Shown piece by piece: positions 14,333-62,028 of a stretch of 64,000 bases of DNA (position 1 is the first letter of the stretch; each line of letters opens with the position of its first letter). This DNA is from Psammoneis japonica (Eukaryota): positions 62,001 to 126,000 of the forward strand of contig QPGO01000166.1 in the NCBI GenBank assembly GCA_008632985.1. The letters are read 5' to 3'. A program made the position numbers and the translations under genes. Below the pieces are notes generated by a model that searched no databases, was not told the DNA's origin, and saw nothing but the letters and a program-made list of their open reading frames with translations.

Positions 14333-14757
14333 GTTGAAAAAGAGTAGCTGAAATTGATACTGACGGGTTGGATCGGTTCGCCGCCGTCATCTGGCCGTCA
14401 TTGTCGCTCGTCTGCTCCGCCTATGATACGTACAGTAACAATTATCGGCGGGAAAAGAGCAGACGAATATTATATACAAGTATAACGTACTGTATAATCA
14501 ATAAGACATATGTCTTTTTGTATATTCATTAAGGCATAATTTATTTAAAATTAAAATTAGACATATCTATCGTTGAAGGTAGCATTCCACGCCAGCACAA
14601 TCCGAAATTCCGAAATCCAGTCCTTCTGTATGTTCCCTGCTGTCTCTCAACGAAATAATGTCGAATGCAAGTCGAATGTCGATGCATGTCCCATGTCCCC
14701 ATTGTCTGTTGACGACGTAAACGTTCTTTGTTCCGATTGTGCAGGCCGCGGTTAGCA

Positions 14758-15519: not shown

Positions 15520-15729
15520 GTTGGGCGAATAAGCCATGGAGTAGGTTGGGCTTTTTTAAAGGCAGAAACATTTGTAGAGAACAGGATAGTAGAAAAACTA
15601 GAATGCTTGCCATAATCTCACTGTTTCAAAACTGGCAGTGCCATTACACTACATGACACTGTGAGACGCCAAGTGGTAAAATTGGACTAGATGGAGTAAA
15701 GGGATCGTTGACACTGGAACATGCTATCT

Positions 15730-18700
15730 GCAGGCAATGTGAACGGGGCGACATGCCGGACGCAATCCAATCGAGTTGTGAATGCTGACATCATCGACAG
15801 TCTTGATCTGCATTTTGAACGCGTTCTTCTGTCCCATGACGTGCCCGGCTAACAACACAACTCACTTGCACGGCTCCTGCGGTTTCCAAAGCAAGTCCAA
15901 AACATCAACCTTTGACAACCCCTCCTGTTCTGTCGCACAATCTGACTTGGAATTGGCTGGCACCACCATGCAACCCAGGAAGCCGCTGCCCCCAGTGTTT
16001 TCTTTTTTTGAACATGAATGAACCATTTGCAACAAAGCTGAGAACACTGCAACCATGTGTTGGGCATGAAAGGGATCAACAACCACTGAATCTGCCTTGT
16101 CTGAATTTTTTTCTGCCAGTTGTCTCATTGCCAACACTGCCACAGTCCAGAAAAAAGGCTGTGTGGCGGCTGTTTGACCCTGATTTTCTTGACCATTTCA
16201 GTGCTGCCAATTCCTGGACAAAAGCCTCCTTGTGACCATGGACCCCAACACCACAGCTGGTCTTCACACTGGTCACTCAACTGTCCAAAAGACCACCCAA
16301 TCTGGTGTCATGGTTGGCTGGCTGGTCGAGCATTGCTGCCACTGACAGTGCCTGGGACATGCTGGGGTCAGTTCCCATGACTGGCCATGAATGCCTTGCT
16401 TTGCAACATCCAAGATTGTGTTGCCCTTTTTCTTGCAGGAAAGGGCCATCCCTGTAGAAAACTGCCTGGAGAAGGGAGATCTGCGGCCAAAACTCACCAT
16501 GTTGCTAGCCGCAGTGTGGGCATGCAGTGCTGACTTTCAAAGTCAAAAAGCTCAGTCAAAAATCCAACCATCTCCAACAAAAGGCTGGGGAGGCTTGGTG
16601 CCATTTCGCCATGTCATCCCACAACATCTGTTCTCAACTCAAAGAACAAAAAAAGTGCAAAGAGTGCAAGTTTGGAGTGGGGAGTGGCAGCCAACACAAG
16701 AGCAAAAAAAATTCGCATGGGAGCAATGATGAACAAATCCATCAATGCATTCAAAATTCACATGATGCCAACAGATCTTTAAGTCATGGACCAAAAAGGG
16801 ACAATGGACACCCCAAAAGCTGGCTCATCTTTTTTTTTTATTTAGAATCTTGCAAACAGGAAAATCTTTTCCATCTCTGCGGCAAAACAGTGCTTTGGCT
16901 CTTGCGTGCAGCATGGCCCACACAACTTCACAGTCAGCACAAATGCTCCAGCCAGGTGCAGCCACAAAGGCAAAGGAGGGCAGGTGCTGCATGATGACAG
17001 TGCCTCTTCATTGGCTTTTTTGGCTTTTTTCCCTGTGTTCTCCTTCACTTCCTTGGCTTTTGCACTCTTCTGCTGCCCCGATGCATGTGCGCACAAAGAG
17101 CACCAAAGCACAGACAGCCGCTAAAAATGGAGACTGTTGATGCACACCAACATGCAATGAAGAAAAGAGCACCCTTCTGCACACACAAAGCAGCCCTGCA
17201 AGTGCCTCTTCCTTTCAAACAGGCACAGCAAAAGAGCAACGGCAGCTAAATGGAAAAAACACTGCCACCTGGAAGTGGTCAAAGGAAGCAAGTGAAAGAC
17301 AAAAGGCAGTTGGCTGGGAAGGTCAGCTTGGAAAATGCAGTTGCCACAGACAAGAGCGGTGGCAACAATCAAGTGCCAAACCACATGAAAAAAAGTGAGT
17401 TGTTGCAACAAACCAACAAAGGCAGGTCATGCAAAAAAATTCCAATGTGTGCTGCCCACTTTTCCAGAGGCAGTGCAAGTTTTTCTGCTGTCTGTTGTCT
17501 GCTTTTCTGGGGTTTGCAGCACCACCTTGTGCTGAAGTGCCTTGCTTGCATTTGCAAGGATTGACCAAGCATGATCTGAACAAGCAAGTGGGCTTGACTC
17601 CAGCCCACTTGTTTTGCTCCCAGTCATGATGCAATGGACTTTGCATTGATGACCATCCCTGCACACAAGTTGCTGCTTGCTCATGCCCCAAAATGAACTG
17701 CGTGCATGTCCCTTGTGCTTTTCTGAGTTGTCCTCAAAGGTGCAGCTTGCACAGCCAGGTTTTTGGCACATTGGAGAGGTGCTCAACTGAGTTCACAGCC
17801 TCCTTTGCTCACAAATGAACTCTCCATCTTTCACCTCTCTGGGCTTGCAAAATTCAACAATGCCTTCCAGCTGCCAGCTGATGTGCTTTGCTGCCAAGGT
17901 CCACCCTTTGTGCAACCTCTTGAAGCATTTGGGCATGCAAGAACTCCAAGCCAGGTGCAGCTTCATTGAGAATGTGTGCCACAAATTCTCGTGCTTTGCA
18001 CCTGGGTCTTTGCCACTTCCCTGCTTGCAAAGATCACACAAGCTCTCACAAAGCTGCTGTTCTTTCCTGCACTGAGCTTTGCAAATCATGGGCTCCCCTG
18101 AGCTTTGGTGACAAAGTCTGTGTGTTCACTCAATGGCCTGCACTGTGATGATTTTTTCTTTGCAACTTGGGCAAGTTTTCTTTTGGTGCCTTGAAACCAG
18201 TGGTCTGCCACAAATGCTCTTGGGGAGTCTGTTGTTCTTCAACAGCCAAAAGCTGATCTTCCAGCATTGCAAATGCAGAAAAAGGCACTGCACAAATGAA
18301 AGTTGAGATGGCAGCCAAACAATGGCACCAATCTGCTGGGGTGCACATGTGCTTGAACAAAAATTTTTGAAATTTCCCTCAGTTGAGCAGAGCAGCTGCC
18401 CCTTGAAGCCATGACAAGGATTGGTTGGGGCAGCAGCTGCCCATGTGCTGTGAGCATTGCACGCCAACAGGGTGCATTCTTTCTGGCTGTCACTTGCCAA
18501 ACTCAGTGGGTCACTGACAAGAACACAGCACAGTGTGTCGTTTTGTGCAGCTCAATTGATGTTTCACCATCAAGAGTGCTTCAAATCATCTAGCTTGAGC
18601 CAAAAACACACCATGCAGACAATTGAGTGTGCCACAAAGCATCAAGTTGGTGTCAAGAAGAGCTGCCGTCCCAGGAATTTCTTTGGCAACCAATTTCCCT

Positions 18701-20450
18701 TCACCAGCAGGTTGAGCAGCACCAAGGCTGCTGCACTTTCTTTTTCCACCAATGCTGAAAAAGCCTTGCTTGGAAAAATCTGGTTGGCTCCCTTGGCTTT
18801 GGCAATTGCTGGATCTGGCAAGGCCTGAAAAAACTTGTCCCACACCCAGCACAACCCTTTGTGGCCTCAACCATGCTAGAATGCTGTGTGCTTCATCCCA
18901 TGCTTCACAACAAAATGGCCAAAATCTTCAGAACAATGCAAACATCTGCCAAGGCCTTGATGATGATTGTGCCCATGTCATTTGCAATCTCACTTGCTTG
19001 TGCTCGTTGGCTTCAGCAAAATGCTGATTGACAGCAATGTGAAATGACATCAGACGTCCACACAGATTTTCCCCGATTGCTCCCTGCAACAGTCTTGCAA
19101 CCCCACCTCAATGGTCTGGCACATGAGCTGTCCCAAGAAGCCCAAAACATCTGCACCACACCTGCAAACACCCAAGAAAAAGCATTGTTGAAATTGGCAC
19201 AAGCTTGAGTGTGTTGGCAGGTCTTCCAAACAAGGCATCACCATGGCTTTTAGCATCTCTTTCTCAACATGAGGGGTTGACAATTTCCACAAGCTTGGCA
19301 AACTTGCCCACACTGCTGGCCACATCTTTTCTTGGTGGGCTTGGTTGCCTTCTCAACATTGCCCCTTTTTGCACCTCCATCTCCACACCAATGCTGGGTT
19401 CTGCAAAAATGACACAAAGAGATTTGTTGACTTCAGCACATGCAGTGCAACTTTGAGCAAGTGCTTTCCAGGTGAGAATGCCAGCCAGGGCACCCTTTGC
19501 ATCAACAAAGCCACTCTCTCATTTTTCAAAATCTTGGCCACTCCCCTTGATGATTGGCATGGCAAGGCAACTCAACGAGCATTTTCTTCACCAGTTTTTG
19601 GCACAACAAAATCTTTGAGACAATGACCTTTGGCAGTTTGAAACAAATCATCAACAAAGCTGTCATGTTTTCAGCATCCTCCTCCTCTGACATGTCAAAC
19701 TCTTCTGGAATGTGTGATTTGTCATTCTGGCAGCTGTTGACATTGCTGACACCATTGTTTGTGGTGGCATCTTTCAAAGCTGCCTCAAATGAAAGTCTGT
19801 GCTTTCAGCAAATGATTTGTCTGTCAAGTTGCAGTGCCAGCAGGGCAACAGTTGGCAACAACAGCAGAGGGTGTCTTGAGAGTGGGAGCAGGTGGTGGAA
19901 ATTTTAAGAAACTGTCATTGGCGGAGTGAATGGCACACTTGTTTTAGAGAGCTTTGGACTTTTTTTCTGGCTGGCACATCAGCTGCTTTTCATTTTGTGA
20001 CATGATGGTGGGAGCCCCCGCATGCAGTTGCTTTGAATTTTTTGTGACACAAGCCATTGTTGCACATGATGTGCACTTCCAAGTTGCTCGCAACAACCTC
20101 CAGCTGGCAGCACCATGATGCATGCTGACAGTGTCACAGTGGTGCACAGTGTGAGGGGGGAGGTTGGCAATGTCCACAAGCTTGATGAACTTGTCTGCAC
20201 TGCTGATCTTTCCTTGATGGAGTCAGCTGGCTTCTCAATGTGTGCAGAATTCAGAGCGAAGAAGAGCCCAGGAGAAAGGAGAGAACGCAATGATCACAGT
20301 GGTGAATCGTGTCGATGTTTGTGTTGTGTTTTGTGCACTTGCACCGGTGCATGTTTGATGTGGTGTTGCTTTGTTGAGGCTTGACCAATTGTTGTCCAAG
20401 GGACGGAAAGCAAGGAAGGAAAAAGTTCCATGGATCGCTCTCTCGCTCGA
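15730..20450. other. TpA/CpG-depleted hypermutated block 1 (decayed TE or gene relics, family not identifiable)
   Basis: TA and CG nearly absent, TG/CA very abundant; ORFs are Tyr-free and Cys/His-rich. Confidence 0.85.
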
Positions 20451-20516
20451 GTGCATTTTACATTTTAAATAAATCGCCTGTGCACGCACAAAAGCACAAC
20501 CGCCTAAAACAAAAAA

Positions 20517-20543
20517 TGCTTCGACCGTGAATCGAACACGGGG

Positions 20544-20585
<42 letters not shown>

Positions 20586-20590
20586 AAGGC
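20517..20590 (-). tRNA. tRNA-Phe(GAA)
   Basis: Reverse complement GCCTTCGATAGCTCAGTTGGGAGAGCGTCAGACT-GAA-GATCTGAAGGCCCCGTGTTCGATTCACGGTCGAAGCA, followed by a T-run terminator. The acceptor stem has one extra or bulged C. Confidence 0.9.
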
Positions 20591-20654
20591 AGATGTGCGA
20601 TGGGCATAGGGTAATCTTTGATTATTTGAAGCCTGCAATGAGCAATTCCCTGAG

Positions 20655-20777
20655 CCAGTGAGGAGCTCTTGACTGAGGAACGACACTGTTGAAATGATTG
20701 GTAGAAAAACTAACTATATGTCAACGTGCACGTTGTCGTGTATAGTTGTGTGCTGGAATTGCAGTTTGGACCCGCCA
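20655..20777. repeat. tRNA-Phe 5' flank, copy A (direct repeat with 26521-26643)
   Basis: Ungapped by-eye alignment ccagtgaggagctc...ggacccgcca vs ccactgaggagctc...tgacccgcca. Confidence 0.9.
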
Positions 20778-22162
20778 TTGCACACCTGCCGCCGGAGCAC
20801 TCAACTTTTCCCGTCACCTCAACCGGGTGACGGACGGACGCTCTCTCTGCACTGCGCGATATCGCGCGCTACGGGCGTGACGTACGGTACCGTACCACTG
20901 ATGATCATACATCATACCGCACCACGCGCGCGATGCACAACCATGAGAATGAGCGATGAGCGATGATGCGAGCGGCGAGCGAGGAATGAATGAAACCCTA
21001 ACCACTGACACACCCTGCCACATGCATCCACCTCTCAGAGCCTTTGTGGCATTGTACATGATATATGAAAGACAGGTGTGAAAGATTGGCACGCTAATGC
21101 ATCTCATCGACGTGAGTGTATCATAATTATTTGTAATGTTATCGCCTTCTGCCTGTCCGTTTTACGTACGTTCTGTTGCGACTTGTTGTTTTTCCATAAT
21201 GGACGCTTGTCGCTTACGAGTATATGGCAAGCTTTTTCATCGCGCTTAACGTTTGCTGCAAGTCTGTGCTGCTTCTTCTTTTTTCTGCGTGAGGTGCATT
21301 GAACTCCACACAGTTTTGGAAACCGTTCTGTGTTTTACCAATAACAACCTGCATCTGGTATGGCATTTCTGAAGACGTCAATCTACCTTTCGAGTCCACT
21401 ACCAGGTGTTTTCTCTCTTCTCAGTGTCGTCAGCTCCGGTTCGAGCAAGATCCTCATTGCGTCGAAAGTATCAGTTTCAACCTCATTCTCCTTCTATTAC
21501 CTGTTACCTGTATGGCGATACGGTACGAATGATGCATCTTCTTGTTTTCCATTTCATAAACAATGCCACATGCTTGAATTCTGACAATTAGAGTTATGCC
21601 ATTTGTTCTTTGTTCCAGGTTCCCACTAGAGTATGAATACGGCATACCCCGACAAGCAAGAAGTAATAAATTGGATTTGCTTCTTCAATTTGGTACGTAG
21701 ACCTACCGGTATCACGCGTCTATTTGTTGAGTCTTCTATTCCATGTCACACGTTTTAATCCTAATATAGAGGGAGCAGTATCGCTGTAGAGCAAAAGTGA
21801 TTTGATCGCGAATGGTCTTGATTACCAACTACTTCAGTGTTGAGGCAGTTTGGTTCGAATTTACTTCTCCGGTGAGTCGTCTATGAAACATCTCAGTCCA
21901 TCAGATCATCTCAAAGTACCTGTACTGTACCTATTTTCAACATATATTGTGCATCATTATTTATTCATCGTCCCTTTTCTCTCGTTCAGTCTGCAGCACG
22001 TACCACACTGTTCCTCAATCATTAGTTTACACAATCTACAGTAAACTTATTCTTGGTATCTCATACATTGGCGCACAAAACAGCGAATGCAAAAGTCCAC
22101 CGCACACCAAACATTTGCCGTACCAATCCGTTTCTCACGGTCAACATCATCTCAATCTACTT

Positions 22163-25100
22163 TTACCAGGCAAAGTCTTCAAATTCAGAGTCTTCATCAT
22201 CTGATTCTGCCTCGTGGTCACCTTCATCTGAGTCTGAGTCTGCTTCCAGGTCATGGTCATCTGAATGCACGGTGTGCAATGAAGCGTCATCCGAAGCGTC
22301 GTCCGAGTATGTGTCTGCTAACTCATTGTAGCCAGCGGCTGCGGCCTCATCAATCCACTGACCGTAAAATGTTGGTTTCCCACAACTTCGAGGACCTGAT
22401 ACATTGTTATCGCTTGTAGCCAACGCAACAGCATCTTCCTCAGTGTTGTCGTTCTCCGTAGATGATTCGACGGTATCGACGGAACTAGCAACGGTAGGCT
22501 TTGCCAAGCCTGATGTATTGTACTCACTCGCAGCCAACTCAACAACATCTTCCTCGGCGCTGTCGCTCCTTGTACGTTCAACGGTATCGACGGAACTAGC
22601 AACGGTGGGCTTTGCCAAGCCTGATACATTGCACTCACTCGTTGCGGCCTCATCCTCGGCGCTGTCGCTCTTTGTACGTTCGACGGTATCGGCGGAATTA
22701 GTAACGGTGGGCTTTATCAAGATTGTTTCTGGCGGATCCTTTCTGGTAGTCGTGTCAGTAGCCATCGTCGCGTTGGATTGGGGGTGTTCCTTTCTAGACG
22801 TATCGGCAACCTTCTTTTTCTTGGGAGGATCCTTCCTATTACCGGTGGACGCCACTAGTTCTGCAGCCTTCCTCTTGTTTGATGATTCGGGGGGATCTTT
22901 CCTAGTAGAAACGGGAGGAGTTTCGTAATTGGCAACAAGGCCGTGAGTAATGGACAATGCAAGTGCCATTTTCCCTTGATCCCTTTCCAATTCAGCTTTG
23001 GCTTTTGCGGCTGCTTCACGCTCCTCGTCAGGCACCCGATGCTTTTCACGAATAGTCCACAGGGACTGAGTTTTTTCAACCTTTGCCAAGTGCTTTTCCG
23101 CCGTTGCAATGTGCTGACATTTCAAGCACTTGATTTTCCCATCAGCCTTGGTAAACGTCACTTCCACCGTGGTGATGTTTTCCTTTTCCCGAAGAAGTAG
23201 AATGTCGAACAAGGCGACAACGTCATTCCAGTAGATGTGCGTTTTGCCGCACTGACGGATCCAGCAAAGCAGGGCCCGACCGCACAACTCGTTGAACCAA
23301 TTGTTGCATTTATCCCTGTGATTTCGGATTGCTCGATTTTCTTTGGTAGACTTTTTGAAAATTCCGCGGCGCTGTCGGTCCTGCTCTTCGGCGGCCTTTC
23401 TCCTCTTCAATTCTGATCGAAGAGCATCGTCAGTGACAAGTTTTTCTTGTTGACGGTCCTGGAAGCTCCGTTGCTTGATGCGTTCCTTGGTCTGAATGTT
23501 GATGAGACCATGTTTTGCAACGTCTCTCTCATGCGCTTGCTTCACGCATTCACGATGACAGTCGACCCGCTTTTCTAGGACATCGAGGCGTTTCTTCTGC
23601 TCGTCGGAAAGGCTGCCAAGGTACGCCAACTCACGTCGCTCCATTTTGCGATGGCATCGCTGACAAACAAAACAGCCAGGACAACCGTGGCCGGTCCCTG
23701 TCATTGACCCTGTGCAAAACATGGTCCGAGAATCATTGCCCGCATTTCCGTTGTCAGCCAGACAAGGGCATGCTTTGGCGGGAGCATCAGCAATGGCCGG
23801 AGCACCAGGACAGCTCCACTGAAGACTCCAAGGTGAGATTGGATCAGAGTTGCCATCCGTCGACAGTTTGAGGTCATGAGCTTCCAACAGTTTGCAAAAG
23901 TTCCGTTCGGACAGGGACATGCCAAACCACAACGCATCGTGGCAATTGAGGTTCAATTGTTTGGAGACCGGCAATGCACCCTTCTTTGGTCCAGCAAAGC
24001 ACCCTCTGGGCATGGCAAGGAGTCGCGCCTTGTAGAAGCACTCGTCTTTGCACTTGTCAGTGTCTGATTTGCCACAACTCATCAGGAATGCCTGGAGAAT
24101 CTTGTGTTGATTCTGCACGTTCTCCGCCGAGACGATTCCGGACGCCAACAACAATTCCAAAAACGTTCGACACGCCTTGACGGCATCAAAACGATGTTGG
24201 TGCGACATCTCTTCGGCAAATGCAACAAAGAACGATGACGTGATGATGATGCGATGTTTGGTCGATCGAGAATGGACAAGACACAGCGCGCAGTTGGGCA
24301 AGACATCAATGCTGTCATCCATGTCGACCGTCTCTTGGAGCCATTTGCCGTGCTCCTTCTCCAAAGCGGCAACGGCACTCCGCTCAACAACAATGACGTT
24401 GTTGGTCGGCATTGACTTCAGAAGCCGTTGCAGGACGTCACGTGCACCTTTTGCAAGAGATTCCGCAGCTGGAGGTGCGCAATGACTCTTGTTTGCCCCC
24501 CGCAATTTTGTCATGACATTTCAAATGACCTTGTTGTTTTCATTTGTCATGGGCTCGGCCAAAGATGTTTCCAACTCGGCGAGCACTTCTTGCAGTTGGA
24601 GCTCGCGTGGACACGTCTTGATGGAGTTTTCGAAACCTCCGCAGCATTGTTCCCCAACAGACTCAATGGCTCGATTGTTCTTTACGAAGCCTCCCTTGGG
24701 TGGCAATGGCAAGAGCATGCGCTGCAGAAACTCGGACGTCTTGGACATTTCTTGCAATCAGCACGGGAGTGTTGGCCAAGAAAACTGAAAGAATGTCCCA
24801 CTTGGTGGAATGGGCGCACCAACCATGAATGCCTTGGCATCGTTGTCGATGGGAACCGGTGCGAGGGCATCCAGGACTTTAGAGGATGGGGAAGCGACGA
24901 GCCGCTCTCCGACGGGGCCCCACTTGCACTCGAGTGGCGATGATGCCACTGCTTCCGCCGCCTGCATCATGATGAGATCGTCAATCTCCTGCAGATGATC
25001 TGGGTGTGCAACAAGACCATCCAGTTCAGAGCTTTGATGTCGGTGAGAAGTTGTTGGGGAAGGAGCTCGTAAATTCGTTTTTGATCTAAAAGGCGTGCAG

Positions 25101-25500
25101 CGAATTGAACATTTTTCTGACGTCCGATGCACGCACGGCAATGGAGTGACACTCCAATCTTGATTTTTCTGTCGGCTCGGACAATGGTGTAGATGCCCAT
25201 CTCATCATCTGCCAAGGAGACTGGCTGCCACCATTTCTCATGAAGGTTTCCCTTGTTGTTCTTGCACTCTTGTCGCAAATGTTGTGTCAAGTGTTGTTTG
25301 AGTCATTTGGTTTTGTCGGTCTTCATTGATGTCGATCCGTCGCTGCACAGGGCATCACGGGTCGCAAGTCGAAGCCGTTTGGACAAATCTTCAACCGCAT
25401 CGTTCAGCTGCTTGCAGGTCTTGGGAGTCTCAAGAGAGCACTTCTTTCCTTCCCATTTGATCTCTGGTTTCATCTTTGCCATCTTGGAGTTGGCAGCAGC
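22163..25500 (-). pseudogene. long eroding gene of unknown function: intact 783-aa ORF (22163-24514) plus upstream broken ORFs; C-terminal tandem repeats and acidic tail
   Basis: Collinear minus-strand ORFs 25303-25734, 24967-25290, 24758-25141 and 24521-24757 separated by TGA stops and frameshifts. Tyr is scarce and Cys/His high in the 5' part. Repeats xxSGLAKPTVASSVDTVE. Confidence 0.55.
22395..22720. repeat. ~117-120-bp intragenic tandem repeat (~3 units)
   Basis: acggtatcgacggaactagcaacggt(a/g)ggctttgccaagcctgat recurs at ~22470, ~22581 and ~22683. Confidence 0.9.
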
Positions 25501-26520
25501 GGCGAGATTGTGCGGCGCAATGAAGGCATGGTGCGGAGTGTTCGATGCAGAGCGCATGGCATTGTCAACTTGGAAGCACCTTTTGAGGTGTGACAACGTC
25601 TGCTTTGACACCAAGAACTCCACAAAGCAGCCAGACGAAATGTGACAAAAATCAACAAACTGGCAAAGCACACGAAGCGTCACGGTTCTTTGCTCACCTC
25701 GCTGCAATTGTGGCAGTGGTGATGGCCGCGGCAAACAAGAATTGTGAGCTCGAGGTGCAGGAGCACAAGCAATCAGACATTTGGTCTACAGAGTCGCGAC
25801 GGCTCTCCACAAAAGAGAGCAAAGAGACGATTCGACCTGTGGAAAGCAGGTGGAAGCACAGTGTGGTTGTCAGTGGTGTTCCATGAGATGCCACGGTGCG
25901 ACGATTGCGGCATTTTCGGTTTGCCTGCTGAGATGCTTTGATTGCTGTGGCGGACGACAACATGCACGGGCAAATGGCGACAGCAACAACAAGCATGGAG
26001 GCAAGAGGAAGAAGCGTGATGACATTGAATTTGTGTGGCAGCAAGTGCGTGATGGAAGTGCACAGCGATCTGTGTGTCAAACTGTGCAACGGCCCAAAAA
26101 CGCAACACGAACGGCGAGCGAAGACGCCATGACCATACGACACATGTTGCAACACACGTCAACAGTGTGTCTCTTTAGTGGCGAACAAACGAGCGTCATG
26201 GTTGATGCGTCATGGTGCTTTCGTTCCTTGCCTTTTGTTGATTGTGGCGAGTGTGCGAAAAAAATGCCAGAACGGTGACCGCGCTGAGGTGCGCGAGCCG
26301 CAGATTTCTGCACAACCACAATAAAAAACATTTCCTGCCAAATGAGGGCATGCTGGGATGAGGGCCAATGTGGTCCCAAACCCCCATTTTCTTTTTTATG
26401 AAACAGCGTTTCTGGCCGACTGCTGTGATGCAACATCACACCAATGCAAAATTCTGGCTGTGGGTTGGACAACTGAGATTACCATCTGAGCCGTGGTCGC
26501 AATTGTCAAAAGCTTTTTAT

Positions 26521-26643
26521 CCACTGAGGAGCTCCCGACTGTGGAACGACACTGGTGAAATGATTGCCAGGAAAACTGACTGTGTTTCTGCTTGCAAGTC
26601 TTTGAGCACAGTTGTGTGATGGAATTGCAGTGTTGACCCGCCA
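26521..26643. repeat. tRNA-Phe 5' flank, copy B (mutated)
   Basis: Aligns to 20655-20777 with all TA sites changed. Confidence 0.9.
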
Positions 26644-26688
26644 AGCCCCAAGCTGTTGTGCCATTTGAGCTGTTCACACAAAAACACA

Positions 26689-27500
26689 GTGAGCGAAACT
26701 CAGGGCCTTCAGATCTTCAGTCTGATGTTCTCCCAAACTGCTGGGCCATCAAAGCTGCTAAACTGACGCTGTTTAGATTGTTTGTGCCATGCAGCACTCT
26801 CCGTGCATTTGCTGCCAAGGCAACAACTTCTTGCACCACACTTTTCAAAGTTTTTTCTGATGCTCTCCCAAGTGGAGCTGTCAAAGTCACCAAGCTGTTG
26901 CCACTGAGCTGCCCACACAAAAACAGCAAGCCAGGCACAGGGTTTTCAGATCTCTGCAGTCTGACACTCTCCTGAACTGAGCCATCAAAGCCATGTTCAG
27001 CAGCTCAGTTTGAGAGAGCACCAGACTGAAGATCGGAGCACCCTGCACTTCTTGATTGGCAACCCATTGTGTGTGACGTGTTCATTTTAAATGGCAGTGC
27101 TGAAGCAGCTTTTAACAGCTCAGTTCAGGAGAGCATCAGGCTGAAGATCTGAAGGCAACATGTTTGATTTGTGGTCTCTCACATGAACATTTTTAATGGC
27201 AAGCTCTCACCAGCTTCGACAGCTCAATTTGGGAGAGCAGTGGACTAAAGATTTCAAGGCCCCATGTTTGATTCATGGTCTCTTGTGTTTGAGAGCATCA
27301 TGCCAAAAATCTGAAAGCTCTGTGCTCAATTCACAGCATTCAATGGAGACATTTTAAATGCCAAATGCCCAGCAGCTTCAGCATCTCAGTTTGGGAGAGT
27401 GTCAAACTGAAGCTTGACTTGTGCTGCATTTGATGTGAAAGCACTTTAAATGGCAAGCACCCAGAGCTTCTACAGCTCAATGTTTGGGAGAGCACCAGCT
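26689..27500. pseudogene. cluster of ~8 degenerate tRNA-Phe copies (2 on -, ~6 on +)
   Basis: Recognisable pieces such as gccttcagatcttcagtctga (-), cagctcagtt..gagagc..cagactgaagatc (+) and ggccccatgtttgattcatggtc; recurrent spacer ttttaaatggca. Confidence 0.85.
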
Positions 27501-30500
27501 CTTGGCTCACAGCACTTTGTGTGAACTTTTAAATTGGCAAGCACCTGGAGTGCAAGTCTGCCATTCAAAATGTTTGCATGACAAAACAACAATGAAGAGG
27601 ACACTCATTGTTTGACATTGAGGTGTGCTGCTGCAGAGAACAGAAGATTTGCAAGGAAAAAAGCCAGATGAAACTCAGCATCAGAATGAACAAAGTTGGA
27701 AGAGTTGGTGTGAACCAGATGACAAACCCAGAGTCAGCAGGGCACTTGCTGGAACACACTGTGCCAGTGTCGCCACCCAGCCTTTGTGCAAAAGGCAGTC
27801 TTGCAATTTTGGGGCACTTTGACATGGGGAAGTTTAAAAAACTTTGTCGAGCTTTTCCAGAGACAGTTTGCCATGCAAAACAAGGCAGGAATGAAGTTGT
27901 CAATGCATGCTCATCTTTCAAAATGTGCCCGCTGGGTGCAAGAGCAAGCTGATCTTGCTGAAGTGCAAAATGTGCCCGCTGGGTGCAAGAGCAAGCTGAG
28001 ATCATGCTGAAGTGATGGGGGTGACTTTAAGGTTTTGAAGAACAAGACAGATCATCCGCAAGATCTTCAGTGTCCACAGCTGAAGCCAACAACAATTGAT
28101 TGCCACGCCCACCCCAGTGTTGCATTTGATGACATTTGCCAGTGCATGGCACAACTTCTCCACTGGAGATGTCTGGCAAGCCACTGCTCACTCAGGCAAG
28201 CACTCACTTTGTCATGTTTGTTGCTGCTCAGCCATTTCCATGACTGACCTCTCACTCTCTCCCATTGTTGTCAGCAAGTGGGCCTGTTGCACACAGCTGC
28301 AAAATGTGTTTGACACCAGGTTCACATCTTGTGGCTCAGGAAATGAGTTTGTTGAGCTTGGAGCTTTGGACATGCATGATGTGCTTGAGCTCTCATGTGT
28401 GATTGGACTGTGCAGTGCAGCAAGGAAAGGAAAGGCATGCATCACAGTGCTGCTGTGCTTGGCATGATTCCATCATCTGCAGCAGAAAATGCACCACCAA
28501 TGTTTTGCAACAAGTTTGTCCTTGCATTGTGCAGCGCCATCCTGTGTCACCATGACTCAGCAAAAATGGAATTTTGTGACACCAAAGATCCACTTTGTGG
28601 GCAGGGACAGCCAGACAAGTGTTCCAGGGAAGCAAGAAAGCCACTCCAACAGTGCCTTGATGATGTGCCTGACAACCTTGGAAAAACAGCAGAGTCAAGG
28701 TCTCCATTCCTCTTTGGAGGGCAGCTGTGACTTAGACAAAATCAACAACCATGCAGTGACAACAGTCCAGAAGAGCTGATCTCTTGGTGAAATGATGAAA
28801 AAGACAACAAAGATTGTGACAGCAGCAATGATGACAACAACAACCCACTGCACCCCTTGATTCTGCCAGCAGCTTGCTCACCAAACACAGGGCCAATTTG
28901 GCACCATCTAGATCTCCCCAATGACAGCTGCAAGAAGAAGTGTTGTCAAATTGCTGCTCACAAATGTTGCATTGAAGACTGGAGCCAAATTTTGAACAAG
29001 AAAGAAAACCTGACAAAGTTGAGGCATGTGGAGTCCCAGCACAGAACGCCGCAGCTTGCTGCCCAATCAATCACAAAAAAACCAGACCCTTGCACTGTGG
29101 CTCAAATTCAATCATTCATTCACAGCAGACACAGCTTCAAAGCTGGAAACAATGAAGCCAGCCTTTGACTTGTTGTCTCTTCATCTGGGTTTTGTGTGGG
29201 AACAATGAAGGGAAGAGATCAACTCCAATGTCTTGCTGGTGTCTCTCACATGTTTGTTCTGCTCTGTGACAAGTTTGCCGTCTCATGAAAGAGAGGTGTC
29301 ATGAGAACTTGGCACTTTCTTTGTGTCAGAAGCCACTGGAACTTGCTTGCTTGCACAGCAGCCCACCTCTTGGAAGAGTGCCTGGTGAACAGATGCAAGA
29401 ACAAATTGACAAAATGAGTGCTTCAAGTTGTCTCTGCTAATTTGATGGCAGTTCTTGCTGTGATGATGAAGGGCCTTAAAAATTGAGGTGACTTGACTTT
29501 GCAGACACAGTGGTTGGACCACTGTTCTTGTCAGCAAGTGGAGCAAACTTCACATCAAGGGGGAGGCAGGGAGATGAGTCTTTGGGAAGGAAAACATCTT
29601 TGTCTGTGACTGGCATGAGATGACAGAGCAGGGTGCAAGTGAAAGGATTGGGGCCCATCAAACGTGACTCCATTTGCTGCAAAATGCAGCACTCTCATGA
29701 GTGGCCTGCCAACCCAGAATGTGTGGCATGTGGGCACTTGCACAAAGGCAGAAACAGACTCCTGCAAGAACTTGGCAATGGACAAGGTCAACGTCAACAT
29801 TTTTTAAAAATTGCATGAAGGACATTTGCAAAAATGGGAGATTGCACATCAAAGCATCTTGCAACTGGATCAGCTGCCAAAGGGGCACAGCAGACAAGAG
29901 GAGAAAGGAGTGGTGTCAACAAAAGCTTTTGTGCATGCTTTGTGATGACCAGCTGGGTTCTGCGCCAACACGAGGCACTGAGAAACAAAATCGCACCAGC
30001 GGAAAAATCATCATGCAATGAAGTTTTTTGCTGTTGACTGGCAGTGGGATTTGGAGGAGCACATGCTTCCACAACAAGCAGGAGCAGATGGAGAGGAGCT
30101 GACATGCACTGGCTGCAATTGGAATGGCAGACCTTTTCTTGAGCTTTGTCAAAGAGTTTGTGCCACTGCCAGGACGTGCTTTTGTGAAGCTGTGGTGTGT
30201 CAAAACTGGGGGAGCAAAAAAGCCAACCAAACTCACTGGCACCAAATGTGTGAAAAAAAAAAAAACAGCACAAATGCAGCTGTCGCATTTCTTCAACAAT
30301 GTCCACCATGTGTGCAATCACACAGAACAACAAGCAACAAACACTCCCTGGATCAGCAACCCCATCAGTGCAATTGCTGTGTTCATGCCCATTTCAGCAG
30401 CACAAGCTCTTGTGGACATGTGCATTGATGAGCTGTCAAAGCAAACATCTTTTTCAAAACAATTTCAGTGTTTGCAGTGCAGCACAATGTTTGTTTTAGC

Positions 30501-33500
30501 TGGGCCAGCACAAGTGTGGAAAAACCTGCTGCCAATGAACTTGGGGCCCTGCACAAGGGATCACACAAGTCTTCCACAATCAAAAGATGCACAAGTCAGC
30601 TGTGCAAACAAAGTTGCCAATGCAAACTTGATGGAAAAGAGTGGAAAAGTGGTGGAGTGACTGGCCTGGCATGCACAGCACAAAAAGCCAAAGTTGGCCA
30701 TGCATGGGGGTTCTTTCAAATTGAATCATCAGCCCACTCCATGGAAGGAACTTCATTTGCACCAGAGGCATGTGCACCAAAATCAATGCAAGCACCTCTC
30801 ATCATTCTTTTCCACAGGACACCACCACATTGTGCCACAACAGTTGCACAAAAATGAGCAGCGGCCATGACAGCTGCACTCCATCCCCAGGCGGAACTCT
30901 GTGTGACATTGGCCCCACAAAATTCTGTGTGAGAGCTCTGCAGCAAAGTTGTCAGGCAATGAAGTGCATGTGATTGCCAGGCTTTTCAGGCAAACACAAA
31001 TGAACATGTGTTTTGTCTCAGTTGAGCTGGCGTGAGTGTGGGCAAAGCTGCCGTCAATGAACTTGGGGCCCCACAACGGATCACAAAAGTCATCTCTCAA
31101 TCAAGGTGCACAAGTCAGCTGCACAGCTGAGCTGAAGATTGCTTCGACACTTTCCTGGGCTCCTTTTGTGCTGCAGGCAACATGTGCACATTTTTTGCCC
31201 TTCTGCTGTGTTGCTTCTGATGAGCTTCTGCCAGAGCCAGTGCCTGGGGGGGGGGGGGGGGGCATTGTCCACTCAATGTCTCCTGCAGCCAGTGCTCCTT
31301 GGGTCTGTGCTGTGGCTGGAGAAAGTGGCTTTTGAGACTGCACCAGGTGTGCAGCCTCTTGGAGCATGGGCTGCTGGGTGCCAGCTCTTGTCAAGCACTG
31401 CTGCTGCAGCAAAGCACTTTTGCAATGGATGCCCAGCTGCACCCATTTTCTCTCTTTGTTTTCTTTGGAGCACAGGGCAGTTGTCAACTTTTCTCAAAAG
31501 CTGTGCTGCAAATGACACAAAACACACCCAAATCAGCATCTCTGAAAATGCCCGCTGTTTTCTGGTGCTGGGTGGAGCAAGATGATGTGATGTGCAACAA
31601 ACATTTCCCAAGCTTGGGGGGTGCTTTCAATGCTGTTCAGTGGCTTTTGCAACTTTGGACAAAGCCCAAAAAGAAGCAGGTGCCATGCACCACTGTCAGA
31701 GCTTCAAAGCTTGAAAGAGCGGGGGGGGGGGGGGGTGTTCTTTGTGTGACCATGCTTTGCTTTTTTTTTGTTTTTGCTTGTGAAAAGGAGTTTGCACAAA
31801 AAACCTGTCTGTTGGGTCATGTCTTTTGTTCTGTGCAAAAGCCACCCAAAGCAGCCAATCTTGCCAGCAGCAGTTGCCTGCGTTGTGAAATTCTTCTAGA
31901 CCAGAGGCATCTAAGGTCAAATGTGCTCTTTCTCAGCTCAGGTTTGAAAAAATGCAACAGCCAATTTCCACAATCTGAGCTGGAAACATGGCATTTTTGT
32001 GTGCAAGCAAACATTGTTCCAACACCACAGACAGAGAACAAAAAGAAGAGTGGATGGTCACCAGTGTGAGACACATGGCCCAATGCACCTGGTGATCTCT
32101 GAACCAGACCAACCCTGCACTTGTTTCTGAGCCAAAAACAGAAGATTTTTGCTTTCACAGCATGCGTGATCTCACTTGCTGCACCTCTTCACCTGCAGGC
32201 TTTGGCATCAAACACGCTGCATCTTTCTCTGCTGTCACAATGGACCACAACAAAATGCAGCAGCTTTGGGGTTTTTGATTGCAAGGAAGTGGTCAGCCCA
32301 AGATGAGGAAGAAGACAAGGAAAAATCTTTGTGCAAAGATTTTGCATGAAATCCCACATGGAACATGACATCAGCTGTGGCGCTGCATGTGCTTTTGGTG
32401 CGCGACCATCAGCAGAAGCCCCAAAAAGCACCGCCACATGCGTGGAACACAACTTGTCATGACAGCCATTGTCGACAATGGACAACATGGGCAGCAGCCA
32501 GAGAAAGCTCAAGGAGCTCCTCATTGACAAGTGCATCTGTTGAATGTCTCTTCTCTCAACTTGAGCTGGTTGTCGACTTGATTGGAGAGAACATGCTGGA
32601 AGAGAACATGGGAGCAAGTTGTCTCTTTGTCCTCAAGAATGTGATGCTCAACAGCAGCTGCCTTGCTTGTTGAGTGCAGTGTGTTGAAGTGTGTCATTGG
32701 CAGCTGCAGGCTCTAGACAAGTGGTCAACCACCAGCAGCAGATGAAAGGATCATGTCAGCTGTTGCTGCACAGCAAATCTCAACAATTGGTTTTTCCTTG
32801 TCTGGTTTCTTTTTCTTTCCTAATCTGAGGAAATTCAGGGTTGAGCAAGGAATTCCCTGCAATCAAAAACCCCAAGCAGCTTGTCTCCTCAAATTCTTCT
32901 GAGGTGGGTGCATCAACAGGGAAGAGTTTTGCCTGCTGTTGCCACAGCAGCAAGGGTCACCTCCACAAACTTCGCTGCAAGGCAAGCAGCTGACCCATTT
33001 CATGCATGACCCCACCCAACCCTGACATCATGCAAAAGGGCAAGAAAATCACAACAGCCCAAAACCACAAGATCAGCTCACAAAATTCCATTGTGACACA
33101 GGATCAGGTGACAAAATTCCATTGTGGCTGCTCAGTGCTTGTGTCAGGTGCCCTGCCAGACCTTGACAATCTTGGAGAGTGTGCGGCATCCTCCACCTCC
33201 ATCTTTCCATGACCACAGGTGACAGAAAAGGCCAAGGCAATGTGTGCCAACACATTGCAATGCTTGCTTGTCCAGCACATCTTGAGCGGTGTGGCGCACT
33301 GCAACAGCATGCCCCACCAGGGCTTGGTGATGAAAAAGCTTTTGTTTGTGAAGCAGCAAGTTGGAAGAGGAGGACATTCAAAAGACAGTCTCCAACACTG
33401 TCAATGTTGCAGAATTGCAGGAATGTGGTCAACAAGTGACAGCTGCCCAAGCAAGCAAGAGAGTGTGCACTGCACTTTTTTCCACAAAAAAGTTGCTGCC

Positions 33501-36500
33501 AAGCCTGCATTTTGTGATGTTCTCAACACAAACAATGAGCTCAAGTTTAGAAAGATGGCAAAAGACAATGATGTTCACCCCACCTTTAAAGCTCAACTGC
33601 CCTGCTGGTCATTGACACAAAGCAGCACAAGCTTGAAATGTGGATCTGGGCGTGCAAGGGGTGCAGCGTGATGAGATGAACTCTCCCTCTCTCTGTTCCA
33701 TGTCTTGACATGACTTGTAGCCCACAGTTGGTTGTGATGAGCTTGTGCAAAAAAAACGCATCTCATGTCAAGGTCAAAGCACTGTACATTGGTTTTGCAT
33801 GTGCAAAATTGTCAAACAGTTGTTGGTTTTGTGTGTGGGTGTCACAACTGAAAAGCAGCCACCACAAAAAATGCACTTGATTGCACAATTGCATGCTCCT
33901 TCTGCATGTCATGCTGACAGACTCTGCAGGTCAGTGTGAAGCAAGCACCAACTCACAAACTCAGCATGTTCCCTGGCCTGGCTGACGCTGGCTTCATTTG
34001 TCATTGCCCTCACATGCTTCAGTCTGGCACCCAGCTTCTTTCTTCAATTTTTCAGAAGAAGTTCCCTGGCTTGATGTGAAGCCTTCCAGCCCACCAGAGT
34101 CCTGCCATGTGGGGAGAACAAGCAAGAAAGGCATTGAGTGGCAAGAAGGTTGACCCAAAAGCTGTTCACCGGCACCTCTTCATTTTGGATCTCATGGTTG
34201 TTCAACTTGTTGTCTTCTGTGCAAGTTTTTGCTCTCATTGTGCAGCATTTGTGGCCATGTGGTGTGGTGGTGGTGGCTGCAGGGGTCAAGGCTGCAAAAG
34301 GGCTGTGTGAGCAAGAAATTGTGCAGGAGCACTGGTGTGCCATTCTGGAGTGCACTCACTGATGCACTGCAAAACACAAGCACTTGTGTGCAACTGCAAA
34401 GCCACAAAAACTCCACCCACCCAAATTGGAAGCACCAGCGCTGCTGAAAAACATGTGCACAACAAAAATGGCAGAAACAAGCAAGGCATTTCAGCTCTGT
34501 CCCCATGAGAGATGATTCTGTCAAGGGCCAAATGGTCAAAAGGCTGGGTGCTGCAAACTCACCAAGGAGAGCAAGGGTCTCTGAACAGCTGTGATGCTGA
34601 TGAAGCCATCATCATGCTTGGCAGCAACCGCGCCATTTGTGGTTGTGCTTGTGGGAGTGCAGCTTTCAGTGCATGTCATTTTTCCCAGTGAGTGCAGCAC
34701 TTTCTTGGGCAGCCAGCTGCGCTGTTCTTTTGACACAATCCTTGTTTGTCACTCAAAGTGTGAGTTTGCCTTTCTTTGCTTCTCATTTTGCTGCTCAGAT
34801 GGGTGGACAGCCACCCCAAACAGCAACAACTCAGAAGATGTTGCAGCTCAACAACAAGGAAAACAGTGCTTTGACAAGCTTGCAGCTTTGTTGCTGCAAA
34901 CATTCCAAAAAAGGCTGCATGTGCATGCATGGTGGGCAGTCAGAAACACACAGATGCAGCTTTCTGCTGGAAACAGAGCATCCCATTTTTTGGGTGTTAC
35001 ACATGCAGTTGTTGTCTTCAAAATTTTTAGATTGGAACAAATTTTTGAATGACAAACAAGCAGAAAGCTGACATTCTTTCAATGACAGAGCACTTTGTTT
35101 GTCAAATGAAGCACAACAGGACATGCTGCCATGAGTGGCTGTGTTGCCAAAAACCAGTGCTGGGCAAAATTGCATGTGAACAAAGTTTTGTTTGTTCATG
35201 CAAAAGAAGGCTTCCAGTTTGCACAATGGAGTGCTCAGGCTTGCATGTTGAGCAGTGCATTTTGTCTGTGCCTTGATGTGTGCACAGCCAGTGCAGCTGA
35301 ATGCAAAAGAAACAATGCAGTGCTGCTTTGCTGCTCTGCTTCATGAGATGGGCCAAGTGTTGTGCAATCAGCACAGGCACCCAACCCATCTCTAGAGCCA
35401 TTTTGTGGGTGGTTTTGTGAGTTCAAAATGTCTTGGCACACTGGAAAATGACACATTTTCTGTTTTGTGTGGCAGCATCTGCCACTTGCCCAGCACAATC
35501 AAAAACCTGCAGCAACCTCACTCCACACAAATTCACGCACTTTTTTGCCCTCACCTTTCCAATGAAAAATGCCGTCTCTTCAACTGTGCAGCACCTTTCA
35601 CAGCCAAGCCAGCACCAGCGTGCGCAGCAGCACAAGTTGCTTGTCAAAAGCAGTGCAGGAGGACACAACAAGACAAAGGCTGCATGCACAGATGTGAGAG
35701 CTTTTGAGCATGTCAGCAAAAAGCAGAAAAGCAGATAACAAAAAAAATGTGGCTTCCCAATCTCTGCCAAAGTTGACAACATTGTCTTTTTTGACCACTC
35801 AAATGACTTTGCAGTTGTCACACCCCTGGCAGCAATTGCCCCAGCATTTGTTTTTGGGTGGACCCCATGCCTTCTTGGGAAGTTGTTGCTCATGACCTTG
35901 TGACATTCCCAAAATCTAAACAGGAAAATGCAATCACCGAAACCTGTTGTTTTGGAACTCCTGGACATTTGCTGCAGTGTGTGTGTGGTGGCTGCCACCA
36001 GTCTCTGAGAAATGTTCAAGCTGAGTGGGTCCAACCAGACTCGCATTGTTGTTTCCACGGTCATTTGATGGAAACATTGCAAGTCAGATGCATTGAATTG
36101 CTTTCCACACCCCCAACCCACAAGAAGCCAGGATGAACATGGTTTTTGTCACTCTGACACCCCTTGCATTGTGTGCCCATGAGTTCTTGGCTCCATGCAT
36201 GACAGCAGCCAGCCACTGACTGAACCACACCGCAAAAGTCTCACTCCTGACTTTGATCAAAGCTGTTGTGCCCAGCTGGCTGCATCTCCAGCTTTGGTCT
36301 TTGATGAAGATCCTACTCTCTCTCTCTCGAACGAACAAAACTCTCTATATATATAGAGAGAGGAGAGCAGCTGCTGCCTTGAGTGCCTTGAGCTCCTTTA
36401 ATTTTCGCGATCGCATCATTGTTCGTTGGAGATCATCTAGACATTTTCTATTTTTCAGCTAAGTGGTCTAGAAAATGTTTCAATCTATCACCAGTTCTAT

Positions 36501-38167: not shown

Positions 38168-38419
38168 GCTTTCGTAAAATCGGTGAAACGTTTGTTTATG
38201 CGAAAGGGTCGTCTTGTGGTGCAAAATCGTGAAGAAGATTGCGTTGATTTGACGGTATCGTCTTTTTCTCTTTTTGACGTATTGCTTGTGTGGTTTTGGC
38301 GGCAGTTCTGCCATACGGACGGACGGTCTCTGCTGGCTACCGGCAGGTGTGGACGGACTGCATGGCGGGCGCCGGCGGCGCGGGCGGCGGGCACAATGAT
38401 GTAACAGATAGACGCCCTC

Positions 38420-43970: not shown

Positions 43971-44313
43971 TCGCGCGCATCTCATCGCAGACTGCATTTG
44001 TCAAGTTCATTTGATTATGTCTCTAGTATTAGAGAGTAGAGAAATCTCCTATAAAGTAGGCCTTTCATCGCACCAACCAGGGCCGACGAAATTGAAGAGC
44101 TCGATCGAAATGAATATGGTAGAGTGGGAAGCAATGATGGAGTGTAGTCAAACCTGCTCCCCGGAACACACAAAACTATGCATCTGCAGGAACAAAGACC
44201 TCATCTAAAATCGCGAGGTAGAGAGAAAAAGACAAGTTTGGTAGTGCTAATACACCTAGGTCCAGCCCGACAGAATGCGCTCCACGTAACCCGGTACGAA
44301 AGCCCACACGCGG

Positions 44314-45482: not shown

Positions 45483-45572
45483 TTGGGTTCAAAACTGCGG
45501 TTTTGAACCCATTTGGGTTCAAAACTGGCAGTTTTGAACCCAAATTGGGTTCAAAAGTGCAGTTTTGAACCC
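45483..45572. repeat. three tandem ~30-bp palindromes GGGTTCAAAA-N5/7-TTTTGAACCC
   Basis: Read directly; lies in the divergent intergenic region. Confidence 0.95.
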
Positions 45573-45854
45573 GAAAAAGGGAGGCACGCGCGCTTCCTCC
45601 TTCCTCCTTCTACTGCAGTCGAATGGTTCGGTTCTTCTAACGTACCACGTACGGACTAGTCGTACGTCCTGCGCTCGCTCGCTCGATCTTCGAAGACCGT
45701 TCACGGTTACACAATGACATCCTCAATCCGCGTTGCAACGTTGCGTGTGTCGTGTGTTCAAAACATCGTGGAGCAGTTTGCATCTCAATCGCACCTGTTT
45801 CGGAGTCACGCCAGTTGAGGGCCGAGATATTGTTTGAAACAGTACTATATCACC

Positions 45855-62020: not shown

Positions 62021-62028
62021 ATAAAAAA

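Follow-up and report, generated by a model that had tools for sequence, protein, structure and literature searches.

The window analysed here is a stretch of 64,000 nucleotides from the diatom Psammoneis japonica (GenBank assembly GCA_008632985.1, contig QPGO01000166.1, positions 62,001 to 126,000 of the forward strand), and all coordinates given below are positions within it. It is nuclear DNA, with genes for TRM13, an SMC hinge protein, Vac14, a DEAD-box helicase and CIA30; among the best 120 relatives of Vac14 (58 to 78% identity), those with names were all from diatoms apart from one labelled Alexandrium. A 1-kb profile of the window revealed four blocks in which the dinucleotides TA and CG were nearly absent and TG and CA were about doubled, at unchanged G+C content. 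We focus on a 123-bp segment which occurs once in normal DNA (copy A) and once in the second of these blocks (copy B), and on the loss of TA from copy B. Copy A is part of an island of normal DNA 2.9 kb in length and lies 66 bp from an intact, unmutated tRNA-Phe gene; 43 bp to the right of copy B begins the first of eight pseudo-copies of this tRNA gene (26686-27412), three of which are on the minus strand and five on the plus strand. The positions of these features are listed in Table 1.

Table 1 Features of the Psammoneis japonica window which are discussed in the text (domain borders from two-state segmentation).
Feature	Position	Strand	Remarks
Block 1	15726-20458 (TA-depleted)		CpG-depleted 15881-20256
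Intact tRNA-Phe(GAA) gene	20517-20589	-	ARAGORN; Rfam tRNA 64.1 bits
Copy A of 123-bp segment	20655-20777	+	normal DNA; six TA, five CpG
Inverted repeat in copy A	20712-20747		arms 20712-20719 and 20740-20747, AACTATAY; both arms AACTGTGY in copy B
783-codon open frame	22163-24514	-	dead family copy continuing into normal DNA; no Pfam domain
Dead copy of unnamed multi-copy protein family	23030-25464	-	bulk of TA-only zone
Block 2 (holds copy B)	23348-36313 (TA-depleted)		CpG-depleted 26548-36327
Copy B of 123-bp segment	26521-26643	+	no TA, three CpG
tRNA-Phe pseudo-copy	26686-26754	-	TA now TG
tRNA-Phe pseudo-copy, partial	26856-26886	-	TA now CA
tRNA-Phe pseudo-copy	26936-26990	-	TA now TG
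tRNA-Phe pseudo-copy, partial	27002-27037	+	TA site outside coverage
tRNA-Phe pseudo-copy	27108-27176	+	BLAST extension: TA reads CA, adjoining CG reads TA
tRNA-Phe pseudo-copy	27214-27280	+	TA now CA; one new TA (CTAA) from TG
tRNA-Phe pseudo-copy, partial	27291-27334	+	
tRNA-Phe pseudo-copy, partial	27376-27412	+	TA now CA
Block 3	38410-44015 (TA-depleted)		CpG-depleted 38441-43892
Block 4	52269-62021 (TA-depleted)		CpG-depleted 52413-61877

Pairwise alignment of the two copies was gapless, with 98 of 123 positions identical and 25 differences (79.7% identity). Within the window this was the sole strong match to the region (BLAST: E = 6.5e-25), and the likeness ended abruptly on both sides, the local alignment score of the left flanks being reached by 56 of 200 shuffles and that of the right flanks by 190 of 200. 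Copy A has TA at positions 20702, 20711, 20715, 20717, 20741 and 20743, where copy B reads, in order, CA, TG, TG, TG, CA and CA. All six sites (6/6) were therefore changed by a single A:T to G:C transition each, with TG and CA products in the proportion 3:3. The other 19 differences, which are spread over 111 positions (17%), comprised 6 transitions and 13 transversions, compared to 6:0 at the TA sites (Fisher: p = 0.005). As the remaining differences are mostly transversions, the TA changes in the pair form a separate class of event. At the background rate, any change at all six TA had a probability of 9e-4, and conversion of all six to TG or CA by exactly one transition a probability of 5e-7. 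The original prediction, made from the sequence of the window, had described this loss of six TA by transition to three TG and three CA and had proposed a test against background divergence; the gapless alignment and the probability of six single-transition conversions bear it out. Changes from TA in copy A to TG or CA in copy B stood at 6:0 against the reverse (one-sided binomial: 0.016), and no TG or CA of copy A reads TA in copy B. CpG was lost less completely (3/5, compared to 6/6 for TA): two of the five CpG of copy A were kept in copy B, one became TG and two changed by transversion, and copy B has one CG where copy A has TG.

The differences which do not involve TA were unevenly distributed. 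In the middle part of the segment (20720-20743 in copy A, 26586-26609 in copy B) 9 of 21 non-TA positions differed, against 10 of 90 in the segment's flanks (p = 0.002). This middle part contains in copy A the perfect palindrome ACGTGCACGT, in which two of its CpG are located. RNA folding of both strands gave no sign of a structured RNA in either copy (z-scores -1.22 to +0.72), and the 123-bp segment had no match among Rfam families at E ≤ 1.

Two sequences alone give no direction, and the changes could also be read the other way, with copy B ancestral and copy A having gained TA as in classical repeat-induced point mutation (RIP), which changes C to T at CpA and which acts on duplicated DNA. 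Such a gain is hard to reconcile with the DNA surrounding copy A, where the tRNA gene is unmutated (64.1 bits) and TA was found at 0.36-0.76 of the expected frequency, without any excess. We examined the direction of change further with two independent references which lie beside the copies: the tRNA-Phe gene and a dead protein-coding gene copy.

The functional tRNA-Phe gene contains a single TA (positions 8-9), and the Rfam tRNA consensus has UA at these positions too. Compared to the functional gene, the five pseudo-copies which cover this site read TG in 2 cases and CA in 3, and TA was kept in none (0/5). CG in the pseudo-copies was changed to TG or CA at 22 of 25 sites, with 1 kept, and the remaining positions were changed at 37 of 322. 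Aligned TG and CA sites were kept at 34 of 41, and just 1 had become TA, in the spared context CTAA. Outside TA, A to G (7/83) and T to C (5/82) were no more common than G to A (11/98). The pseudo-copies further differ from the gene by indels, truncations and 11% other changes. None of them matched the Rfam tRNA model at E ≤ 1, and the intact tRNA was the sole Rfam match across 20300-27600. In a self-comparison, 26648-26755 was 74.5% identical to 26890-26991.

The functional gene is otherwise canonical, with a non-standard C-C pair at positions 1-72 of the Rfam alignment. It lies 58 bp outside the TA border of block 1 (20458) and 260 bp from its CpG border (20256), which is a single case without statistics; in yeasts, tRNA genes are able to act as heterochromatin barriers. 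Together, the tRNA-like units at 26857-27239 make up a palindrome, though a degenerate one (60% identity over 300-387 bp), and such an inverted array could yield a hairpin RNA.

The dead gene copy makes up the bulk of a zone adjoining copy B in which TA is depleted and CpG is not (the TA-only zone, 23348-26547). The family to which it belongs yielded 143 relatives at E ≤ 0.001 in a full HMMER search, none of which had informative names; of the 16 relatives scanned with Pfam, HA was found in 2 and GCR1_C in 1, with no other domains. Ten columns have tyrosine in 40% or more of 40 homologues; there the local copy has Cys at 5, His at 2, Lys, Trp and Thr at 1 each, and Tyr at 0. Conserved tyrosine (codon TAY, where Y is a pyrimidine) was thus replaced by Cys or His at 7/10 columns. 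In the dead copy, Tyr made up 0.6% of residues versus 2.1% in the genes of the window, and Cys and His together 8.9% versus 4.4%.

The homology to this family ends near 23030-23130, and close to this point the TA border runs inside the 783-codon frame. In normal DNA the frame continues with tandem repeats (22395-22721) and an acidic tail, and it has stayed open though the copy is dead. A word-based homologue search with the 783-residue frame found no relatives, and an ESM Atlas search with it gave scores of 0.80, which is chance level only.

Both the tRNA and the foreign homologues support TA as the ancestral state and TG and CA as the derived ones. Since the dead copies by copy B differ from their references by TA to TG or CA, since UA is the original in the Rfam consensus and since conserved Tyr codons were destroyed in the zone adjoining copy B, we reject an RIP-like gain of TA in copy A, for which we see next to no chance. 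That copy B lost TA and copy A did not gain it had also been expected beforehand, and this is borne out on the neighbours (pseudo-copies 5/5, Tyr columns 7/10); the argument given for it at the time, that copy A adjoins the intact tRNA, was weak, and the direction instead follows from the pseudo-copies and homologues.

We then considered how the two depletions are arranged across the blocks. The CpG-depleted domains were nested in the TA-depleted ones. At seven of the eight edges TA depletion overran CpG depletion, by 31 to 202 bp in six cases and by 3200 bp in one. The CpG border at 26548 falls within copy B, which as regards TA is 3.2 kb deep in the depleted domain. Copy B was thus correctly placed at a block edge as regards CpG depletion, but not as regards TA depletion. 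The claim in the original prediction that TA loss was more complete than CpG loss holds in number, although we now attribute it to the position of copy B at the CpG boundary; the two CpG which it named as kept were indeed kept, but the other three of the five in copy A were lost. At the left end of block 2, TA density declines as a gradient from ~22950 to ~23650.

Within the blocks, TA was found at ~0.03 and TG and CA at ~1.9 of the expected frequency, with CpG at ~0.1 in the cores. The cores contained 79 TA, compared to 1188 expected from normal density (about 93% removed), and 220 CG, compared to about 1690 expected from normal density; TG and CA stood at 114.5 and 118.1 per kb. AA, AT and TT were undepleted, with AA at 88.3 per kb versus 79.2, and G+C was 0.48 as in normal DNA. 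In the doubly depleted zones, 37.7 TA and 50.0 CG were lost per kb (sum 87.7) and 95.9 TG and CA were gained, whereas in the TA-only zone 35.2 TA and no CG were lost per kb and 44.2 TG and CA were gained. This mass balance fits conversion of TA and CG into TG and CA. It also bears on the suggestion that the blocks are of other origin, or under selection, and never had TA or CG, so that no mutation process need be involved. No homologues or domains were detected for the blocks within the window, as such an origin would have it; the gain of TG and CA nevertheless equals the loss of TA and CG, G+C is that of normal DNA, and the tRNA-Phe copies and the 123-bp copy inside, which are derived from the host, show conversions when compared to the host originals. 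We therefore give this suggestion almost no weight.

The TA-only zone contained 17 TA versus 133 expected (87% lost) and 204 CG versus 190 expected. As this zone is poor in TA at full CpG density, TA loss does not require CpG decay and the two are separable; TA erasure was either faster than CpG decay or targeted differently. A different view would be that error-prone patch repair at lesions, for example at T:G mismatches from deamination of methyl-cytosine, introduced the changes through a polymerase miscopying T-A, without any adenine deaminase; the signature of a polymerase-eta-like enzyme is WA to WG, where W is A or T. The occurrence of TA and CpG losses in the same domains and the patch-like length of the TA overhang on the six edges speak for it. 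The zone which lost TA at full CpG density speaks against it, as does the lack of AA depletion, since a WA mutator should strike AA, and the near-saturation described below for purine-TA-pyrimidine sites asks for a very specific agent. On balance we consider patch repair unlikely.

The bases flanking the lost and residual TA showed a preference (R denotes a purine). Of the residual TA, 61/96 were YTAR, compared to 210/1216 in normal DNA (p = 1e-21), and in the cores RTAY was found once versus 371 expected and YTAR 57 times versus 205 expected. At sites with TAY on one strand only, products on the TAY strand were gained at 36.6 per kb and those on the other strand at 15.3 per kb; after subtraction of an equal CpG share (13.85 each) these become 22.8 and 1.4 per kb, and ~94% of such sites were converted. 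The 123-bp pair behaved in the same way, with 5 of the 6 altered A followed by a pyrimidine and 3/3 one-strand TAY sites altered on the predicted strand. Furthermore, 4 of the 6 TA of copy A sit in the arms of the inverted repeat, where they were changed identically in the sense of the arm, with the hairpin potential retained. Because the mutator reads a short single-strand context, the 3:3 split of TG and CA is no evidence of strand indifference, and because these TA are in inverted-repeat arms, the TG-TG and CA-CA pattern is one context-driven outcome seen twice. The TAY rule explains the apparent strand symmetry: the even split was correctly noted in the original prediction, but it is a context effect.

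This context also argues against a base-calling artefact, in which modified bases (5-methylcytosine in CpG, modified A in TpA) would have been misread as T and G by the caller of long reads. The two lost dinucleotides are palindromes, which is common among methylation targets. A modified base, though, disturbs only the reads of its own strand, so that, with a majority taken per column, roughly a quarter of RTAY sites, where both strands are targets, would stay TA and roughly a quarter would become CG; RTAY was almost absent and RCGY was not raised in the cores, and the one-strand sites were ~94% converted rather than 50%. The indels, truncations and 11% other changes of the pseudo-copies are likewise not expected of misread bases, and real de novo mutations of the same kind have been measured in Bigelowiella natans (10.64898/2026.01.13.699255). 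An artefact is in our view very unlikely.

Taken together, these results show that a rare and barely described mutation process which destroys TA acted in the block of copy B. We regard it as very probable that TA was lost in place in the lineage of copy B (TpA to TpG or CpA), through a process targeted to domains. The 123-bp segment and the adjoining tRNA-Phe gene would have been copied to a second place about 6 kb away, where the tRNA part would then have multiplied to a small array with units in both orientations. This second place lies in a domain under two separable mutation processes. The first would convert TpA to TpG or CpA by an A:T to G:C transition, acting on the A of 5'-T-A-pyrimidine-3' on either strand; the second would be ordinary decay of CpG to TpG or CpA, of the kind caused by cytosine methylation, in a nested domain of slightly smaller extent. 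Both domains leave out copy A and the working tRNA, which are untouched. Copy B lost 6/6 TA and yet retained CpG because it is inside the domain of the first process and on the edge of that of the second. As only copy B was mutated and the surroundings of the tRNA were not, duplication by itself is not the trigger, and targeting is by place, such as a chromatin-like domain or a marked element.

Several points count against this interpretation. Neither an outgroup nor a third copy of the 123 bp was found, with 0 matches in each of two degenerate-pattern scans of metagenome contigs and 0 in an index of other DNA windows, and the direction for the segment itself rests on neighbouring sequence and parsimony. 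The TA events in the pseudo-copies number between two and five, because some copies were duplicated after mutation. The pair is old (other divergence about 16-17%) and represents a saturated end state, which yields no rates. TAY is a preference and not a law, the exceptions being CTAA to CTGA in the pair and the two TG at the tRNA's ATAG. Finally, when Pfam was applied to the 105 open frames with a length of 110 codons or more in the blocks (15726-20458, 26548-36313, 38410-44015 and 52269-62021) and at their margins, it found no transposon or viral domain in any of them.

The sole strong Pfam match among these frames was a host RNA methyltransferase gene at a block margin, and a weak match to Septum_form (E = 9.5e-4) was below the cut-off. 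The long, domain-free open frames exist because TAA and TAG were erased. Self-comparison of the window gave 13 repeat pairs, and the blocks were not visibly repetitive within the 64 kb. Five tandem TA are located at 36346-36355, at the right border of block 2 (TA border 36313/36314). Two further palindromes, one near-perfect (45483-45575, about 90%) and one weaker (14466-14552, 73%), are in normal, gene-bearing DNA.

As for the enzyme, the first process may be the work of an ADAT/TadA-like enzyme which is recruited to silenced or foreign DNA and deaminates adenine there to inosine, as has been proposed for Bigelowiella natans (10.64898/2026.01.13.699255); we put this forward tentatively, by analogy. 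The 3.2-kb TA-only zone suggests that the adenine process was earlier than, or independent of, cytosine methylation. Somewhat more speculatively still, the locus could represent a genome-defence mutator of diatoms, in which an ADAT/TadA-like adenine deaminase would act at T-A-pyrimidine in marked domains, before or independently of cytosine methylation. This could be the same system as in Bigelowiella natans, and so old and widespread in the stramenopile-alveolate-rhizarian (SAR) group, and would be the functional mirror image of fungal RIP, removing stop codons and tyrosines, with active tRNA genes possibly marking or holding the borders.

Adenine deamination might also have occurred in RNA: double-stranded transcripts, for example of the inverted tRNA-like array, would have undergone A-to-I editing, and their reverse transcripts would have been inserted into the genome again. 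The array at 26857-27239 is a degenerate palindrome, and a 5' U preference is typical of ADAR (10.64898/2026.01.13.699255). The depletion, by comparison, is unbroken over 5-13 kb of mostly non-repeated sequence, and its borders inside a gene copy and beside host genes are unexplained by retro-copying. A 3' pyrimidine preference is also not the pattern of ADAR, and we believe that an origin in RNA editing is highly improbable.

Hardly any case of targeted A-to-G mutation of chromosomal DNA is known in nature. In the full-text literature, with subscription journals largely outside, we found no description besides the Bigelowiella natans preprint and none for diatoms; a preprint on SPLASH (PMC9258296) contains the words 'diatom' and 'hypermutation', yet is unrelated. 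The locus described here adds a polarised demonstration in a diatom, for which the functional tRNA gene and the foreign protein homologues served as references. It also supplies evidence that the erasure of TA and the decay of CpG are distinct processes in nested domains. The T-A-pyrimidine flank rule, which was replicated inside an inverted repeat, narrows the search for the enzyme, and an adenine deaminase which naturally acts on DNA in a defined context would be of interest to research on both genome defence and base editing. It should also be noted that blocks without TAA and TAG give long false open frames which mislead gene callers, and that conserved Tyr is read as Cys or His in them.

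The process at this locus resembles several known systems in part. RIP, in Neurospora and other ascomycetes, is a localised, dinucleotide-specific transition mutator which ruins repeated or foreign DNA and spares adjoining genes, and the changes seen here are likewise localised, dinucleotide-specific transitions with spared neighbours. However, RIP makes TpA from CpA and creates stop codons, whereas the process here destroys TpA (leaving TA at ~0.03 and TG and CA at ~1.9 observed/expected) and removes TAA and TAG. RIP also mutates both duplicates, whereas copy A keeps its six TA and the tRNA-Phe gene is unmutated despite eight copies 6 kb away; it should be noted that 123 bp may fall below the length threshold of RIP. 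Decay of CpG by 5-methylcytosine matches the change of CG to TG or CA at 22/25 polarised sites and the CpG level of ~0.1 observed/expected in the cores, but it accounts for the CpG half only, and the CpG-depleted domain, which is nested in the TA-depleted one, can be separated from it.

TadA and ADAT2 act on U33-A34 of tRNA anticodon loops and ADAR acts on double-stranded RNA. Their conversion of A to I, which is read as G, would give exactly A to G, and a 5' U or T is common to them and to the process here. The bacterial TadA substrate U-A-C fits T-A-Y. ADAR has a 3' G preference beside its 5' U preference, whereas the preferred 3' neighbour here is a pyrimidine. To our knowledge, domain-wide action on chromosomal DNA is not an established activity of any of these enzymes.

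The closest parallel is the TpA-restricted hypermutation of integrated virophage DNA and DNA of nucleocytoplasmic large DNA viruses (NCLDV) in Bigelowiella natans, which was reported by Mettrop et al. (10.64898/2026.01.13.699255). In that preprint, de novo TpA to TpG or CpA mutations were measured in mutation-accumulation lines, adenine deamination in DNA by an ADAT/TadA-like enzyme was proposed and action of ADAT2 on DNA was cited, whereas the changes here are read from a saturated end state. Bigelowiella natans is a chlorarachniophyte and Psammoneis japonica a diatom (stramenopile), and TpA frequency was 1.8-fold lower there, compared to about 93% of TA lost in the cores here. CpG decay is nested with TA loss here and the altered A has a 3' pyrimidine preference; the text of the preprint contains 'CpG' 0 times and is also without the words 'context', 'trinucleotide' and 'flanking'. 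Host tRNA gene copies are among the mutated sequences here, which is a further difference. The two cases are alike in that A:T to G:C changes occur only at TpA, giving TpG or CpA depending on the strand, and that long-term depletion of TpA and enrichment of CpA and TpG are seen in clustered windows and in transposon-like coding sequences. In both, the mutation appears confined to particular regions, with the remaining genome normal; here these regions are sharp domains, without viral or transposon domains in their frames (0/105), and one of their zones consists of the dead gene copy, whose family has 143 relatives.

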